Shown in pieces: positions 45,233 through 52,139 of a stretch of 64,000 bases of DNA (positions are counted from its first letter, which is position 1; every line of letters begins with the position of its first letter). A program made the translations under genes and the position numbers. The notes below the pieces were generated by a model, which searched no databases, had not been told where the DNA came from, and worked only from the letters and a program-made list of their open reading frames with translations. The stretch is from sequence record NC_105587.1, one strand, 5' to 3'. Source of the DNA: Escherichia phage EC100.

Positions 45233-48200
45233 TTAAGAATTTCCTAATGTTTTCAGACTAGCACCGTTCTCATTCAGAGCTAATTCTACTGCGTCTCTTA
45301 GAGCACTACTATTACTAGAAGCAAACTCTCTAAAACTTGCAGCATCCATAGCACTAATATTCAAGATGATAGGTCTTCCTGAAGTTGAGTTAGATGAGGT
45401 TTTTAACTCATCATTAGGTGTAGCTTTCATAGGAACCATAGGGGTAACTACTTCTGTACCATGCTCACCCATTTGATAGCTAACCCCAGGGTACATATTA
45501 CCACCCTCAGCACGAGGAACGAAAGAGTTAGCACCGCCTATGCCTTTATCGCCACGAATATAAGATAATTCACCAGCATTAGCAGACATGGACACATCTA
45601 TATTCTTCTGACGTTCTCCTAAGGTTAAATAACTAGTTGTATCCGCCCCAGAATCTGCAATAGAAGACATGCCAGATGCAGAAGATGCTTGTGCTAACGC
45701 CAATGCACCCGCTAAACCTGCCGCAACCATTAAAGGAATAGAGAACGGGTATGGTACAGCTGTTGCCGCTTGCATTACAGCTACTGCAGTTTGGATGATA
45801 ATCTGCTTCTTAGCTGCGTCTTGTTGAATCTTCAGCTTTTCAGCTTCCAACTTCTTCAACTTAGCTTTAGATGCTTCTGATTTACCATCACGTTTCTGTT
45901 CTGCTGCAATAGCCTGATCAATTGCACTAACTTGTTGGCTAGTACTATATTGAATCATCGAGGCTACAGTCTGCATACCAGAAGCAATCATAGACGTAGT
46001 ATCTAGGGATCCCTGGGAGAACTGAATCATAGAGTTAGTTAAATTACCCATGCTTTGAGCTACAGCAGTTGCTTCGGAATTTAACTCAGATAGTTTAGAA
46101 ATTGCTTGGTCATACGAAGACATCCTATTCTGCATATCAGCAAAATCTTTATCTGCTCCAGATAGGCCAGTTGTAGGAGTATAAGTAGCTCCAACAGAAG
46201 AACCTACCTGTTGCTGCATCTGAGCATTACGTTGTGCTGTTAAAGCTGACATCTGAGCCCTTGTCTTAGCTATTTCAGCATTCCAACGCATTTGCTCATT
46301 AGCGTTACCTTTGGTAAGTTCTTTCATCTGAGTATAAAAATCTAACTGCATTTCCATTTTTTGCATTTCCCCTGCCAGAGGGAACATGGAAGTTAGAGTA
46401 TTTTCAAAGGCTTCTTGCCTTTTACTGGTCATTTCAGCTTGCTGGTTCTGACGGAATTTCCATATTTCACGTTCAATTTGGGCTTGAGAACGTCTAGACT
46501 GTTCAGCCTCTTTCTGTTTGTCCGCTTGTTTTGTATACCATTCGTACTTCTCTTTTTCAATGGTCAATTCAAGATTTAACTGTGCTAGACGATACTGAGT
46601 ATCTGTCATAGTACGGTTATTTAAGAGAGCTATCTCACGATCTACACCAAGAATTTTATCTGTGTAATCCTTGACCTTCTTCTGAGCTTCCATACCCTGA
46701 TTGGTAAGTTTAAGTTTCTCCAGCTGAATTTTTTCAATTTCTTTCTCAACAGCTTTATTTCCCTGGTTTGTTTGAAGAACACGGCGTAAAGCAGCTTCTT
46801 GCTCTTCTAACTGTTGGAGTTCTAAACGCCTACCGGCTTCCTGTGCTTTTTCTTTATCCTTAGTTTGGTTATATACATCAGCTATCTTCTGTTGAACTGC
46901 TAACTGATTTTTAGTTTCATTACCGGTTAGTTTAACATACTCAGATAAGGCCTGAGACGCAGTTTTCATTTCAGACAGAGTGTTATAGCCTAGGTTAAGA
47001 TTTTTAACGTACTCATCTGCACTTTTACCAGTACCTAGAGATAGAGATTCTATATTTTTTATAGCATCTGCTAAAGTAGCACTAGTTTTAGCAGCAGTAT
47101 CTGTATTCTGAGCAACGTTCTGTATGTCATTAGCTAAGTCACTAGCCGTTTTCTTAGTCTGATTGTACGCTTTCTGCTGCTCAGTTAGTCCTTTTAATAC
47201 AGTAGAGTTAAAATCGTATACAGCATCAGGATCAGTAGTATCTCTCTGTAGATTAATCTGTTTCTGAAACTCTGGATTAGCTTTTGCAGCAGCAGCACCC
47301 GCAGCTTGATAGGCTGACTTCCAAGCATTAAGGTTTTCAGTAGAATCTTCTACTTCCTTACCTAGTCTGGTTACTTGTAGACCCATAGCCGCAGTTTCTT
47401 CTACGAACTTTTTATTAGCTTCGGAAGCACCAGCAGCAGCAAGACCAACAGGAATACCTTCACCAACTTGACGTATGGCTAGTTTTGTATAGAAATCTGC
47501 TTGTTCCATTCGTTTGTCGAACTCAGATTTTAGCTTATTACGCTTATCAAGAGATTCCTTATACATATCTAGAGCTTTATTATAGCCTTCTTCAGAAGCA
47601 GCCAAACTTAAAGCAACAGCACCAACGTTGGTAGGATCTATCTGTCTATTAGTTTTTTCTTGCGCTCTAGCTGCCTCAGCAGATATCGAAGCCTGAGAAG
47701 TGTAGAATACAGTATTGATAGCATCAATTACTGGCCCTAAATACTTAGCAGCAGCCTGCTGAATCTTTCTCAGGGCGGCATCTGCATTAGCAGCAAATTG
47801 CTCCCATGGAGTTGCACGTAGTACTTCATCTAGGTAGCCAAACCTCTTAGTAGATTCAGCAATTACCGCGTTAGCGTATGCTTGTTGTTTCTGGAAAGTG
47901 GTAAGACTATTAACATTATATGTTATACCTGTGTTTGCAGCATTTAACTGTTTAACATAATCGGCGTATGCGTCATTAAGACGGATGGTGACACCAAGTT
48001 CATCCAGAAGTTCGATTTCTTGTTTAGATACGCCCTTAATTACACGGTTAAGTGCATCAGTCATATCAACACCAAGAACAGCAGCAGCACGACGAGCTAC
48101 TAAACCAAATTTATTAAGTTGTTCGGCATCAAATCCATAAGCAGATGCTGAAGATGCCTGTCTCATTGCTTCCTCAAAAGAAATAGCATATCCAGCAGCT

Positions 48201-48916
48201 TCTTGTAGTGATCTAGCAAGGGTCTGAACAGGAGTACCTGTCTGAGTACCTACTATAACACCAAATTTTTCTAGACGATTTAGCTGGTCACCTAGTTTAA
48301 GTTGTTCGAACGCTGATTGCAAAACGAAGATGTTGGAAGCAAGAGCTGCGTACATAATAGGTAAACTACCACCTATCTTAGCCATTGCTGCAAAATCACG
48401 AGTTGCACCACGTGCTGAACCAGAAGTATTACCAATAGCTCTAGAAGCTCTACCAGCGGCACCAGCAGTGTCATTAAAACCCCTAGCTGTGCCACCTAAT
48501 GCTCTATTAGTATCATATAACCTATCTTGAACTTTCTCTGTTGCAGCTGCAACATCATTGCCCATTGTTTTAACAGATCTAGAAACCCCATCGAATCCAA
48601 CTTCTAGCTTATCAGCTACCTCTATCATTGTAATAGCAAGGTCGTCCAGCTTAGTTCCTATATCATTAATAGATTTAGTAACACTAAGCATACCCCTACT
48701 AGCTTGCATTTTAGTAAGACTTTTTGCTGCTCTATCTGCTGCCCTCTCAATGGAGTATAGAGTTTTGGGCATTTTACCTAACTGTTCATTCGTTAGCTCA
48801 GAAGCCGCAGCAGCATTCTCTAATGCATCAGATACGTTTTCAATAGACTTTGCAGTACGAGTTGCCCCCTTCTGTTTAACGTCTATTAGTAATTCTCGTA
48901 TTAGCTTATCAGTCAT
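45233..48916 (-). CDS. tape measure protein (T5 pb2-like)
   Basis: 1227 aa, long coiled-coil and Ala/Gln-rich stretches, hydrophobic segment near the C-terminus. Confidence 0.85.
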   Translation of the reverse strand: MTDKLIRELLIDVKQKGATRTAKSIENVSDALENAAAASELTNEQLGKMPKTLYSIERAADRAAKSLTKMQASRGMLSVTKSINDIGTKLDDLAITMIEVADKLEVGFDGVSRSVKTMGNDVAAATEKVQDRLYDTNRALGGTARGFNDTAGAAGRASRAIGNTSGSARGATRDFAAMAKIGGSLPIMYAALASNIFVLQSAFEQLKLGDQLNRLEKFGVIVGTQTGTPVQTLARSLQEAAGYAISFEEAMRQASSASAYGFDAEQLNKFGLVARRAAAVLGVDMTDALNRVIKGVSKQEIELLDELGVTIRLNDAYADYVKQLNAANTGITYNVNSLTTFQKQQAYANAVIAESTKRFGYLDEVLRATPWEQFAANADAALRKIQQAAAKYLGPVIDAINTVFYTSQASISAEAARAQEKTNRQIDPTNVGAVALSLAASEEGYNKALDMYKESLDKRNKLKSEFDKRMEQADFYTKLAIRQVGEGIPVGLAAAGASEANKKFVEETAAMGLQVTRLGKEVEDSTENLNAWKSAYQAAGAAAAKANPEFQKQINLQRDTTDPDAVYDFNSTVLKGLTEQQKAYNQTKKTASDLANDIQNVAQNTDTAAKTSATLADAIKNIESLSLGTGKSADEYVKNLNLGYNTLSEMKTASQALSEYVKLTGNETKNQLAVQQKIADVYNQTKDKEKAQEAGRRLELQQLEEQEAALRRVLQTNQGNKAVEKEIEKIQLEKLKLTNQGMEAQKKVKDYTDKILGVDREIALLNNRTMTDTQYRLAQLNLELTIEKEKYEWYTKQADKQKEAEQSRRSQAQIEREIWKFRQNQQAEMTSKRQEAFENTLTSMFPLAGEMQKMEMQLDFYTQMKELTKGNANEQMRWNAEIAKTRAQMSALTAQRNAQMQQQVGSSVGATYTPTTGLSGADKDFADMQNRMSSYDQAISKLSELNSEATAVAQSMGNLTNSMIQFSQGSLDTTSMIASGMQTVASMIQYSTSQQVSAIDQAIAAEQKRDGKSEASKAKLKKLEAEKLKIQQDAAKKQIIIQTAVAVMQAATAVPYPFSIPLMVAAGLAGALALAQASSASGMSSIADSGADTTSYLTLGERQKNIDVSMSANAGELSYIRGDKGIGGANSFVPRAEGGNMYPGVSYQMGEHGTEVVTPMVPMKATPNDELKTSSNSTSGRPIILNISAMDAASFREFASSNSSALRDAVELALNENGASLKTLGNS

Positions 48917-48924
48917 ATTTTATT

Positions 48925-48964
48925 TTTCCCAATAAAAAAGGCTCTGGGCAAATCACCCAGAGCC
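48925..48964 (-). terminator. rho-independent terminator directly upstream of the tape measure start
   Basis: GGCTCTGGG / CCCAGAGCC 9-bp stem followed by UUUUUUAUU; the ATG follows 23 nt later. Confidence 0.6.
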
Positions 48965-48998
48965 AAGCCTCATCGTGGAACGCCCATTGGAGGAAACT

Positions 48999-49490
48999 TT
49001 ACCGTGCTCGAGATTTGGCATGCGGCTTAACGTTAGGTATTCTACCGTTTTGCGGCTTATGCTTCTCAGCACGTTTACGTGCAGCGTCTACAGCTTTAGC
49101 ATCAAATATATTGATAATGTGTAGAACAAATTCTTTTTCTATAGGGTCGGTAATCCCATAAATATCAAATAAAACACCTAAAGCAGCCTTGTCTTTACCT
49201 ATAAAGATAGGGAAGTCACCAGGTATGAAACAGTCAACTAGACTATTATAAATATTCATACTAATAGCTACAATAGGTGGAAAGTCTTCAAGTTCAACAG
49301 GCATAGCCTTAGGATCAGGTTCTATACCCATTGACTCACAAAGTATTAAATATTGTTGTTTAGTCATTTTAGATGCTGAGCTTTTAATACACTTATCTGC
49401 AAAATCAGCAACAGCATCTAGTAGTTCTTTACGCTTTTGAGCTACGAAAAGTGTCGAGGTGGAACACTGTCTGGTTGATCCAAGAATCAA
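48999..49490 (-). CDS. tail assembly chaperone, downstream frame (possible frameshift extension)
   Basis: 163-aa ORF in the +1 frame relative to 49429-49848, overlapping it by 62 nt; the only start is a non-ATG codon. Confidence 0.35.
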   Translation of the reverse strand: MILGSTRQCSTSTLFVAQKRKELLDAVADFADKCIKSSASKMTKQQYLILCESMGIEPDPKAMPVELEDFPPIVAISMNIYNSLVDCFIPGDFPIFIGKDKAALGVLFDIYGITDPIEKEFVLHIINIFDAKAVDAARKRAEKHKPQNGRIPNVKPHAKSRAR

Positions 49491-49848
49491 ACGCAGCAGA
49501 GTTCTGCATAAGCATTACAGCATTATCACGACTAAATGGAACTTCAGTAGTAGGATCAGCATCTGTCTCAATCAGCATCAGCTTTTCAACGTCACCTACA
49601 GTCAAACCAGTCCAACCTTTAATTGCAGCATCAACGAAAGCTTCAATAAACTTATCGTCATCCTGTACTTGAATTAGAGTACCATTAACCCACTCATCGC
49701 GTTTGGCGGAAGAGATAACACGCTTAGAGGTAGCACGAGACATATAGTTAAGCTCTAGCTTAAAGTTTGGCATACCTGGGTATGAAAGAGTAATAGTACG
49801 GGTATCAAGGGTAATATCTTTTAAATTAATCATTTTTAATTTCTCCAA
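49429..49848 (-). CDS. tail assembly chaperone
   Basis: 139 aa immediately upstream of the tape measure gene. Confidence 0.5.
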   Translation of the reverse strand: MEKLKMINLKDITLDTRTITLSYPGMPNFKLELNYMSRATSKRVISSAKRDEWVNGTLIQVQDDDKFIEAFVDAAIKGWTGLTVGDVEKLMLIETDADPTTEVPFSRDNAVMLMQNSAAFDSWINQTVFHLDTFRSSKA

Positions 49849-50728
49849 AGAAATCTATTCTCACTGGGTCTGAAGAAGCAGTAGGTATAATATCCCACTC
49901 AACTTTATACACATCTGAGAAATCTAGGCGTTTTGTAATACGTGCTAAAGGAAAATCTATAGAAATACTATTATTTCTTATATTTAAAGGTACATCGGTC
50001 TCTGGTTCGATATTGTAAACCATATCTCCAGCAAAACGTTTTAAGTAATATAGAGAAATGGTTGCCGAAGCATTCATTTCATTTACATAGGCTCTTTTAT
50101 TATTATAGATTTTATTTATATCAAAAACACTCTTATCTTCTCTCCAAGAGCATTGCTGTTGAAAAGATAAAGAGGCGGAAATAAGGCCAGGTAAGATGCT
50201 ACCGTTAGTAGAAACTATTACCGGGCTATAAGACATTGCTTCACCCTGTATAATAGAAGCTGCTTCTCTATATGTAGATACTTCGGAGAATTTCCCTGAC
50301 TCAATACCAACGTTAAGAATTGGTATATTCTTATCTAAAGAAAAATCTACTGTAGATACATAACAGTTTTCAAAATATACACAGTTGTTATCTTTATTTA
50401 CTATATAGATATTAAACATAATAGGTTCAATATTGTTACTATATAGTGGTAGTAAGAAAGTATTACCTTTTCTGTCAAAACCTAGCCATTCAAAAAAGTT
50501 AGCTTCAGTAAGTGTATTACTAAAATTTATTGCTAGAGAGATAGAAGAAGGAGTTTGAGCATTTATAATAGAGTCTGCATAGTTAGTTCTACGATGAATA
50601 GTCCTACGAAGGGTCTTAAATTCTTCGTAGGATGTTTGTACATCATAGTTTGATAGGGCATCAAAATGAAATGCCCTACCATCATACTCAACTATAACTT
50701 TTGACTCTCGCATTAGAGAGTAGTACAT
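49826..50728 (-). CDS. tail structural protein (T5 p140-like)
   Basis: 300 aa between tube and chaperone genes; assignment by size and position. Confidence 0.4.
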   Translation of the reverse strand: MYYSLMRESKVIVEYDGRAFHFDALSNYDVQTSYEEFKTLRRTIHRRTNYADSIINAQTPSSISLAINFSNTLTEANFFEWLGFDRKGNTFLLPLYSNNIEPIMFNIYIVNKDNNCVYFENCYVSTVDFSLDKNIPILNVGIESGKFSEVSTYREAASIIQGEAMSYSPVIVSTNGSILPGLISASLSFQQQCSWREDKSVFDINKIYNNKRAYVNEMNASATISLYYLKRFAGDMVYNIEPETDVPLNIRNNSISIDFPLARITKRLDFSDVYKVEWDIIPTASSDPVRIDFFGEIKND

Positions 50729-50732
50729 TTAT

Positions 50733-52139
50733 TTAACCACCAGCACTAACTGTGATAGTTTTAGTACCTTCTACACCAGAACCGTCTTTAGCTACAGCCT
50801 TCACAATAACTGCACCAGTTTTAGAAGCGTCAGCTGTTAATAGCCCAGATTCTGCATCAATCGTAGCTGCGTTACCACTAGAAATAGACCAAGTTACAGC
50901 CTTATTAGTAGCTTCTGGAGGTGTTACCTCAACAGACATCTGTAAAGTATTACTATTTGTTACAGAAACAGCCTCACCTGCAGATTTAACTATAATGGAT
51001 TTAACGGGAACTGGAGGAGTTTTAGCACCATCTCCGGTAGCAATTAGATTCGCTATTGTAGTTTTGGTATACTTGTTAGAGAAGCCTAAGTATCCTTCGT
51101 CACCAGTATCCAAATCAGTAGGAATAGCTTTAAACTCTACTGAAGTACCAAGTACATCATCAGTCTCAATAGTAGGAATGTTAACGTGCGCCTGTTTAGC
51201 AACTAACACAGCTGCCGGACGTTCATCATCGTATTCACCACCCAAAATAAGTGCAATTTCAAAACGGTTAACTACCTTAAGGGTTTTGACAAGATCTTTG
51301 TACAGTTCCATAGAACCAAGAGACTTATCATTAAGGTATGCTGTCAAAGAACCCGTTAACTCAAACGCACCTGTAAATGAGCCGATTGGAATATTTACAC
51401 GGGACATAATATTCGGGGTTAGGTACGTGATGTTGTTATTAATGGTAAAAGTACCACCAGTAATAGGAATATCATATGCCTTATCAGAATCCATATCCTT
51501 AATTTTTAGGATAGTTAACTTGTTCTTAATGTAAGAACTCTGAATAGTCATATAGGTTTCATCATCAATACCTAGTGCATCTGGATCAAATGGTTGGCTA
51601 TCTAACGGGATGAGCTGATTACCATTACCAGACCAAGTTACACGACCAATATCCTCAATATCAACGTTAACTTCTGCCTGGTTGATCTGGCAAGAGTCAA
51701 TATAGCTCCATGCTTTGTCAGTAAGAATGTAGATGTGCAGCATAGCCAACTCATGATAAGAGTTATCTTTAAAGTTAACCATGAAGTTAGCTTCATTATT
51801 ATGCGCACCTGTGTCTCCCTCAAGGTTTAGTGCTTTACCACTAGAAAGAGCATGCCATAACATGTAGTCGGGAACAATCTGTTTATTAGAGGTTTTATCC
51901 TTGTATGGCAGGATATAAGTAGAAAAACTCCACTCAGCCGCATTTAAGGAATCGTTAAAACGTTTAGAACCACGAGTAGGCCGCGGACCAGCTTCGTTAA
52001 CAGTAATATCTGTTGAGTTACTGTCCTGACCCCAAGAAATATCATCCTGAACTAGAATCTCTTGCGTGTTGGTCTTATCGTGACCAGTCTTAACCGTAGA
52101 CACGAAGATTCGAGTATTACGTAATAGTTGTAAAGACAT
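50733..52139 (-). CDS. major tail tube protein with C-terminal Ig-like domain (T5 pb6-like)
   Basis: 468 aa; C-terminal ~90 aa with bacterial Ig-like (Big_2-type) pattern; AGGAG SD. Confidence 0.75.
   Translation of the reverse strand: MSLQLLRNTRIFVSTVKTGHDKTNTQEILVQDDISWGQDSNSTDITVNEAGPRPTRGSKRFNDSLNAAEWSFSTYILPYKDKTSNKQIVPDYMLWHALSSGKALNLEGDTGAHNNEANFMVNFKDNSYHELAMLHIYILTDKAWSYIDSCQINQAEVNVDIEDIGRVTWSGNGNQLIPLDSQPFDPDALGIDDETYMTIQSSYIKNKLTILKIKDMDSDKAYDIPITGGTFTINNNITYLTPNIMSRVNIPIGSFTGAFELTGSLTAYLNDKSLGSMELYKDLVKTLKVVNRFEIALILGGEYDDERPAAVLVAKQAHVNIPTIETDDVLGTSVEFKAIPTDLDTGDEGYLGFSNKYTKTTIANLIATGDGAKTPPVPVKSIIVKSAGEAVSVTNSNTLQMSVEVTPPEATNKAVTWSISSGNAATIDAESGLLTADASKTGAVIVKAVAKDGSGVEGTKTITVSAGG

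Follow-up and report, generated by a model that had tools for sequence, protein, structure and literature searches.

Our analysis concerns a tail-assembly chaperone locus of the T5-like phage Escherichia phage EC100 (sequence record NC_105587.1), of which one stretch of 64,000 nucleotides (nt) is hereafter called the window. Two open reading frames (ORFs), which we refer to as the G (ORF1) and T (ORF2) parts of the pair, overlap on the minus strand. ORF1 extends from 49848 to 49429 (139 amino acids [aa] from a TTG codon) and ORF2 from 49490 to 48999 (163 aa, also from TTG), and the distance between their first nucleotides (49848 - 49490 = 358 = 3 x 119 + 1) places ORF2 in the +1 frame of ORF1, with an overlap of 62 nt when counted from TTG 49490. 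These coordinates confirm an earlier note made from the sequence letters, which had described a chaperone ORF ending at 49429 and overlapping by 62 nt a 163-aa ORF in the +1 frame. The open stretch of the +1 frame reaches from 49514 to 48999; the -1 frame is closed, with just 7 codons open across the ORF1 stop. A shift linking the two ORFs would consequently have to be +1 (or -2) rather than -1, as the earlier note had also argued. Consistent with its further remark that no canonical slippery heptamer was evident, the window lacks an X_XXY_YYZ heptamer, i.e., the canonical -1 slippery feature, towards the end of G. The pair does show the overlap feature of lambda-type G/GT genes, namely a second ORF without a conserved start that overlaps the 3' end of the first in another frame; here, the frame is +1 and the overlap 20-62 nt. 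The features that bear on the argument are as follows:

49429..49833, minus strand: G chaperone ORF (homologue of T5.143), 134 aa, 15 kDa, from ATG 49833 to TAA 49431-49429
49444..49449, minus strand: proposed +1 shift site UUU_CGU (Phe129-Arg130 of G), in frame, five codons upstream of the stop
48999..49448, minus strand: T segment in the +1 frame, 148 aa after the shared Phe, stop at 49001-48999
49368..49428, minus strand: 61 nt that are "intergenic" between T5.143 and T5.142 in T5, behaving as +1-frame coding sequence
49365..49367, minus strand: annotated start ATG of the T5.142 homologue, giving a 122-aa, 13.7-kDa T
49370..49420, minus strand: hairpin with a 9-bp lower stem (UAGAUGCUG / CAGCAUCUA), minimum free energy -23.3 kcal/mol, z -2.0

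Both ORFs match a single profile of known function. ORF1 aligns to positions 11-141 and ORF2 to positions 170-258 of the same 258-position profile, PHROG 313 "tail assembly chaperone" (ORF2 additionally matches PHROG 3914, E = 2e-56), and a conceptual G-T fusion aligns in one stretch to positions 12-258 of 258 (184 bits). The pair is located between the tail tube/baseplate-tube genes and the tape-measure gene, a placement with which the annotations of T5 and of Salmonella phage Shivani concur. Because both ORFs match one PHROG 313 profile and the +1 relation is conserved in relatives, the arrangement is not a matter of chance, and the data support the conclusion that ORF1 and ORF2 form a tail-assembly chaperone pair of the lambda type, with ORF1 as G and ORF2 as T, which is the arrangement recognised in the earlier note. 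The comparison with T5 proposed in that note recovered the same pair, since ORF1 and ORF2 are the homologues of T5.143 and T5.142; in the T5 annotation, they appear as two separate genes 61 nt apart, with no fusion.

The start of ORF1 is likely ATG 49833, which is preceded by a GGAG Shine-Dalgarno sequence (duplex free energy [dG] -6.4) and is the annotated start in T5 and Shivani; the TTG at 49848, which would add 5 codons, is probably not used. For ORF2, TTG 49490 was rejected as a start, because a stop in the +1 frame separates it from the remainder of ORF2 in T5, Shivani, and most relatives, which reduces the overlap to only ~26 nt. We found no credible start of its own for ORF2, in line with the earlier remark that it lacks an ATG and has only a near-cognate start: in T5-type genomes the T frame contains no ATG, GTG, or TTG between the shift site and position 49367, and candidate T starts in other lineages are not positionally conserved.

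To compare the locus among relatives, we used T5, Shivani, Klebsiella PWKp9S, Serratia Kamaji, Vibrio pVp-1, Rocket24, JSF12, D13, and 234P7B, together with 80 IMG/VR loci and 50 metagenome loci. Aeromonas phage AhSzq-1 (locus L090, 1801-1872), a partial genome probably affected by sequencing frameshifts, was excluded; its chaperone ORF is broken 23 codons into the match, in a region without annotated genes. The T part lies in the +1 frame in all Demerecviridae-type phages examined and in the marine lineages L035, L092-L101, L120, and L127 (group 1). The earlier note had considered the case that the overlap might not be conserved; instead, the +1 relation is kept in relatives down to ~30% protein identity.

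In every +1 lineage examined, which covers T5-like, Klebsiella, and Serratia phages, four Vibrio lineages, and marine metagenomes, an in-frame TTT_CGN is present where the +1 frame opens, i.e., at its 5' edge. The second codon of this motif, which would occupy the ribosomal A site, is CGT, CGA, or CGC and never CGG, and the G stop follows 1 to ~20 codons after it, depending on the lineage. The shortest overlaps are the most restrictive: in Vibrio phage D13 (11 nt; AAC AAC TTT CGT TAA) and in pVp-1 (17 nt; AAC TTT CGA GAC TAA), UUU_C is the only place where a P-site transfer RNA (tRNA) can re-pair in the +1 frame. Furthermore, TTT and CGN are both kept in 7 deep lineages, as compared with 48% TTT among Phe codons and 58% CGN among Arg codons elsewhere in these genes (P ~1e-4), and dual coding may contribute to this retention. 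Across the 59 ORFs of the window, TTT is used before C-starting codons at a frequency of 44%, versus 64% elsewhere (odds ratio 0.44, P = 2e-5), and 10 of 11 control NNT/NNC pairs are without bias before C, GAT being the exception. This depletion of TTT fits counter-selection of a shift-prone tetranucleotide. For GAT, the deficit before C is of comparable size (odds ratio 0.46, P = 4e-6).

A separate regularity was observed upstream of the motif. In 12 of 17 +1 lineages (e.g., L001, L003, L004, L005, and L092-L099), a +1-frame stop is found exactly two codons upstream of the shift codon. This stop is TAG or TAA and comes out of Leu-Asp/Glu codons of the form NTA_GAN; the window has CTC GAC at this position and hence no stop. 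The stop is probably a by-product of coding, and the same codons occur in lineages with T in the -1 frame.

The latter lineages (group 2) are metagenomic relatives of 30-50% identity that match the same PHROGs. They carry canonical heptamers that coincide with or adjoin the homologous Phe codon, namely G_GGA_AAC (16 distinct tails) and A_AAT_TTT (11). The T parts can be aligned across the two groups beginning with the residues that directly follow the shift, and for the window this alignment spans the entire T part; a rough neighbour-joining tree is consistent with the direction having changed once within the family. One metagenomic locus (L130) is the only -1-frame lineage without a canonical heptamer. 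It has TCG GCT TTT ACG at the end of ORF1, where a single-tRNA -1 slip on U_UUU is conceivable.

The 61 nt that precede the annotated T start behave as coding sequence in the T frame. Among 27 distinct T5-like sequences, the variable sites of this stretch fall 5, 1, and 15 times at +1-frame codon positions 1, 2, and 3, respectively (binomial P = 4e-4); the G body (20/2/80) and the T body (17/12/69) show a matching pattern. The stretch encodes just two peptide variants. Likewise, the lone polymorphism between TTT and the G stop, TCA/CCA, changes Ser to Pro in the G frame and is synonymous in the +1 frame. In the L092-L101 clade, identity over the same nucleotides is 0.33 in the +1 frame versus 0.26 in the zero-frame G tail. 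The segment encoded by the 61-nt stretch is also homologous to the translated T N-terminus of group 2. Sequence upstream of the annotated ATG thus appears to be translated in the T frame, which only ribosomes coming from G would be able to do.

From these comparisons, we consider it likely that low-level +1 slippage from UUU to UUC at UUU_CGU yields a 277-aa G-T fusion. Most ribosomes would translate G (134 aa) and terminate at 49431-49429. In a small fraction, when UUU (Phe129, 49449-49447) occupies the P site and CGU is the next codon due in the A site, tRNA-Phe would slip forward by one base and pair with UUC (49448-49446); the slip is expected to be favoured because the anticodon GAA pairs with UUU via a G:U wobble and with UUC via G:C, the better match. 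GUA (49445-49443) would then be the next codon, and the +1 frame would be read on to 48999, giving a 31.1-kDa fusion with the junction ...HLDTF/VAQKRKELL... (the slash marks the shift). Such a product predicts a trans-frame tryptic peptide specific to the +1 slip on UUU_C (DNAVMLMQNSAAFDSWINQTVFHLDTFVAQK, 3542.9 Da), an AspN peptide (DTFVAQKRKELL), and a peptide encoded upstream of the annotated ATG (VAQKRKELLDAVADFADK...). By analogy with lambda gpG/gpGT, the G part may hold the tape-measure protein, and the T part may recruit the tube protein.

This proposal has precedent. PMC5009743 describes UUU_Ynn as a sequence at which bacterial ribosomes are particularly liable to shift +1, and gives UCC_UUU_CGU as the minimal cassette of influenza PA-X. 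The efficiency of the PA-X shift is ~1%, and among PA-X-like sites of other viruses CGN is the preferred A-site codon (Firth et al., PMC3498833). By comparison with the G:GT ratio of lambda (30:1), a yield of ~1% would suit a similar ratio here.

Several observations weigh against a +1 slip at this site. TTT_CGN is not unique to the locus, as 10 other in-frame pairs occur in the ORFs of the window, so the motif alone is no signal. Because CGT is the commonest Arg codon in those ORFs (425 of 859), an explanation by a slow or "hungry" A site is not evident. The codon that would occupy the E site varies (ACT, ACC, TCA, AAC, GGG, AAT, TAC, or CGA), i.e., the UCC of PA-X is not conserved, and there is no Shine-Dalgarno-like sequence upstream of UUU_CGN. 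No stimulatory RNA element shared between lineages was found; the sole candidate, the hairpin considered below, is clade-specific and 29 nt away. A natural in-frame G-T fusion of ~270 aa is absent from 146 T-domain cluster representatives. According to the genome paper on phage Sugarland (PMC6256483), which cites Zivanovic et al. 2014, the T5 chaperone is without a predicted frameshift signal. Met occurs at the annotated start position of T in many lineages, -1-frame ones included. Finally, T5.142 expressed alone from a plasmid is soluble and an active trigger of the defence by a Schlafen anti-phage nuclease (PMC13056530), which indicates that stand-alone T is at least viable.

The last two points also favour the reading that the locus encodes two separate proteins, with T (122 aa) made solely from ATG 49367 and no fusion formed. 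The genes are annotated in this way in T5, ESCO40, and most records, gene callers often begin at the frequent Met, and a Shine-Dalgarno-like sequence precedes a nearby ATG in the Klebsiella (-6.6), Serratia (-7.7), and D13 (-6.4) phages. The T5-type ATG 49367, however, has no Shine-Dalgarno sequence (anti-Shine-Dalgarno duplex dG of the upstream 17 nt, -0.1, vs. -6.4 for ORF1), and the residue aligned with it is Ile in Klebsiella, Val in Serratia, and Phe in Vibrio phages. Moreover, separate translation does not account for the third-position-biased substitution in the upstream 61 nt, for the homology of this stretch to a translated N-terminus in the -1 group, or for a +1 frame that is open exactly back to UUU_CGN in every lineage. 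We therefore regard the production of T solely as a separate protein as quite improbable. A combination of the two, in which a minor +1 G-T fusion is made alongside free T from the internal ATG, with the hairpin modulating use of this ATG, appears unlikely. It would accommodate the stability of free T5.142, the frequent Met, and the one compensatory change seen in the hairpin (49420..49370) within the T5 clade; the missing Shine-Dalgarno sequence and the restriction of the hairpin to this clade speak against it. To our knowledge, lambda makes no free gpT, which likewise argues against free T here.

A fusion could also arise elsewhere in the overlap, by a -2 shift or by a +1 slip of tRNA-Lys from AAA to AAG on the A-run CA_AAA_G (49439-49434). 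A_AAA_G resembles known tRNA-Lys slip sites, and by exact look-up the joined coding sequence of Shivani (YP_009194776.1) has precisely the -2-after-Lys junction, ...TFRSSK/KRKELL. In phage Mu, the shift of the G/GT pair is -2 (PMC3498833), and the PHROG 313 scores (184.3, 186.2, and 185.2 bits) do not separate the three junctions. The A-run is nevertheless limited to the T5 and Klebsiella clades and is absent in Serratia (ATC AAG), pVp-1, Rocket24, D13, L120, and L127, where the G stop follows CGN by 1-2 codons. If tRNA-Lys re-paired with CAA in a -2 shift, the first position would be mismatched, and the TCA/CCA polymorphism just upstream of the run is synonymous only in the +1 frame. This site is, in our view, decidedly improbable. 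The earlier note had suggested that the shift may occur at the GCG-TAA-A stop context, which would amount to a stop-stimulated, prfB-like +1 shift of tRNA-Ala on GCG. Such shifts are well known from prfB (PMC10885494; PMC3498833), and the stop does lie within the overlap. Re-pairing from GCG to CGU would be poor, though, no Shine-Dalgarno-like element lies upstream, and the pre-stop codon is neither slippery nor conserved (GCG, GCT, TCG, GAC, AAC, TCT, or CGT, depending on the lineage). The distance of the stop from the conserved T N-terminus also differs by lineage, and in L092-L101 the stop is located ~20 codons inside conserved T coding sequence. Because the position of the G stop and the pre-stop codon vary in this way, we consider GCG_UAA_A barely credible. 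Termination-reinitiation is excluded for the same reason, as the G stop lies 1 to ~20 codons past CGN relative to the conserved T N-terminus. Three further candidates were rejected: a -1 shift (the frame is closed), a -2 slip on UUU (CTT, CCT, CAT, ACT, and GGT, with which the tRNA would have to re-pair, are not conserved), and transcriptional slippage (the T-run is just 3-4 nt long).

The hairpin at 49370..49420 begins 29 nt 3' of UUU and ends 2 nt before the annotated ATG. Its conservation covers the T5 and Epseptima-like clade, in which an Epseptima-like relative (L028) has one compensatory change from U-A to C-G; it was not seen in the lineages outside that clade. At a spacing of 29 nt, the hairpin is unlikely to act as a frameshift stimulator; it might block ATG 49367 or set the timing of its use, or it might be incidental.

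Database comparisons gave further information on the two parts. A homologous-protein search with the 277-aa fusion returned no significant match among 1036 candidates, and one with ORF1 alone returned 12 matches, none of them fused, several of which carry the precomputed Pfam family PF27119.1. Neither ORF1 nor ORF2 had a match in NCBIfam or in Pfam (a copy that does not hold PF27119.1), and a Protein Data Bank sequence search with T gave no match. A single-sequence structure model of the T domain (predicted local distance difference test score, 69.7) is too weak for a fold search. Two long database proteins, P0032 (1455 aa) and P0156 (554 aa), contain several separate stretches that match the T domain (8 and 4, respectively) and look like tandem arrays of T-like domains. 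Another, P0001, from the ORF1 search, is labelled Enterococcus faecalis and is probably a contaminant or a mislabelled record.

With regard to genomic context, the 1-kb chaperone region is 100% identical to that of Escherichia phage EC104 and shows at least 80% identity to 443 phage records. Contigs near-identical to T5-like phages also carry the label "Listeria phage LM 4-11-1" and are probably contaminants or mislabelled. On the minus strand, the genes follow one another as pb6, p140-type tube protein, G (ORF1), T (ORF2), and pb2, and the neighbouring genes are as follows:

52139..50733, minus strand: tail tube protein pb6
49826..50728, minus strand: baseplate tube protein (p140 family), directly upstream of G (Pfam PF23779, E = 6e-140; PHROG 3889)
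45233..48916, minus strand: tape-measure protein (pb2 homologue), downstream of T, according to the annotations of T5, Shivani, and ESCO40

In the interval that separates T from the tape-measure gene, the minus strand contains a strong intrinsic-terminator-like hairpin (48940-48964; 11-bp stem with 7 GC pairs, then TTTTTTATTG), and a putative terminator is annotated equivalently in T5. In T5 (L003, 10778-11530), the endonuclease gene T5.141 is present between T5.142 and the tape-measure gene; the corresponding interval of the window (48917-48998) is without an insertion.

The locus resembles lambda gpG/gpGT (Levin 1993; Xu, Hendrix and Duda 2004) in having two ORFs between the tube and tape-measure genes, the second overlapping the 3' end of the first and lacking a start of its own. 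Lambda makes a minor fusion by ribosomal frameshifting, and by analogy the same is proposed here; the G fold may resemble that of the HK97 and YqbN tail-assembly chaperones (Pell et al. 2013). Lambda differs in using a -1 shift on G_GGA_AAG, whereas the site proposed here is a +1 shift at UUU_CGU without a heptamer, and it is the sister lineages that would use the lambda-like G_GGA_AAC or A_AAU_UUU. With PA-X, amalgaviruses, fijiviruses, and chronic bee paralysis virus (PMC3498833; PMC5009743), the locus shares a P-site UUU that could re-pair as UUC and a CGN in the A site. As in those PA-X-like sites, there is no obvious RNA stimulator, a low efficiency is expected, the site is at the 5' end of the +1 ORF, and the motif is kept against synonymous alternatives. 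The PA-X-like sites nevertheless belong to eukaryotic RNA viruses, are read by 80S ribosomes, and have CGU as a rare codon, whereas here the motif occurs in a double-stranded DNA phage of bacteria, with CGU as the most frequent Arg codon and an E-site codon that differs between lineages. A further parallel is offered by the UUU_Ynn sites of E. coli and Yersinia YopN-TyeA, where a +1 shift of bacterial ribosomes at UUU followed by a pyrimidine, without a stop, fuses adjacent products (PMC5009743; PMC3789692), although the UUU_UGG site of YopN-TyeA was not confirmed by mutagenesis (PMC3789692). Phage Mu gp41/42 and Shivani likewise have the T part in the +1/-2 frame. Shivani provides the single record that annotates a joined coding sequence of these genes; its A_AAA_G -2 junction differs from the one proposed here and is not conserved beyond the T5 and Klebsiella clades, unlike UUU_CGN, which is family-wide. 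Full-text searches of the literature returned no account of a +1 UUU_C frameshift in T5-like phages or in any phage tail chaperone, and the 2026 Schlafen paper (PMC13056530) handles T5.142 as a separate protein with no mention of frameshifting.

A broader reading, which we put forward tentatively and regard as possible though doubtful, is that UUU_CGN is a minimal, stimulator-free +1 cassette that functions on bacterial as well as eukaryotic ribosomes, and that a phage family including T5 has long set its G:GT ratio by it, with the direction of the shift swapped relative to -1 sisters at the same codon. If so, the occurrence of CGU, CGC, or CGA but never CGG would suggest that the inosine-containing tRNA-Arg(ICG), acting in the A site, is the common mechanistic cause, and the pSlfn5 Schlafen system would naturally be triggered by T as part of a G-T fusion, not by free T5.142.

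T5 is a reference siphophage whose chaperone genes have been annotated and studied as separate proteins. If T is made only as the C-terminus of a fusion, several hundred annotations of T5-like genomes would be incomplete, and the native form and abundance of the Schlafen trigger would differ from those tested. A slip at UUU_CGU would also provide a conserved phage case of a +1 motif hitherto associated with influenza PA-X and some other eukaryotic RNA viruses. A single family with -1 heptamers in some lineages and a +1 tetranucleotide in others, at the same codon, would then be useful for understanding what sets the direction and efficiency of frameshifting.

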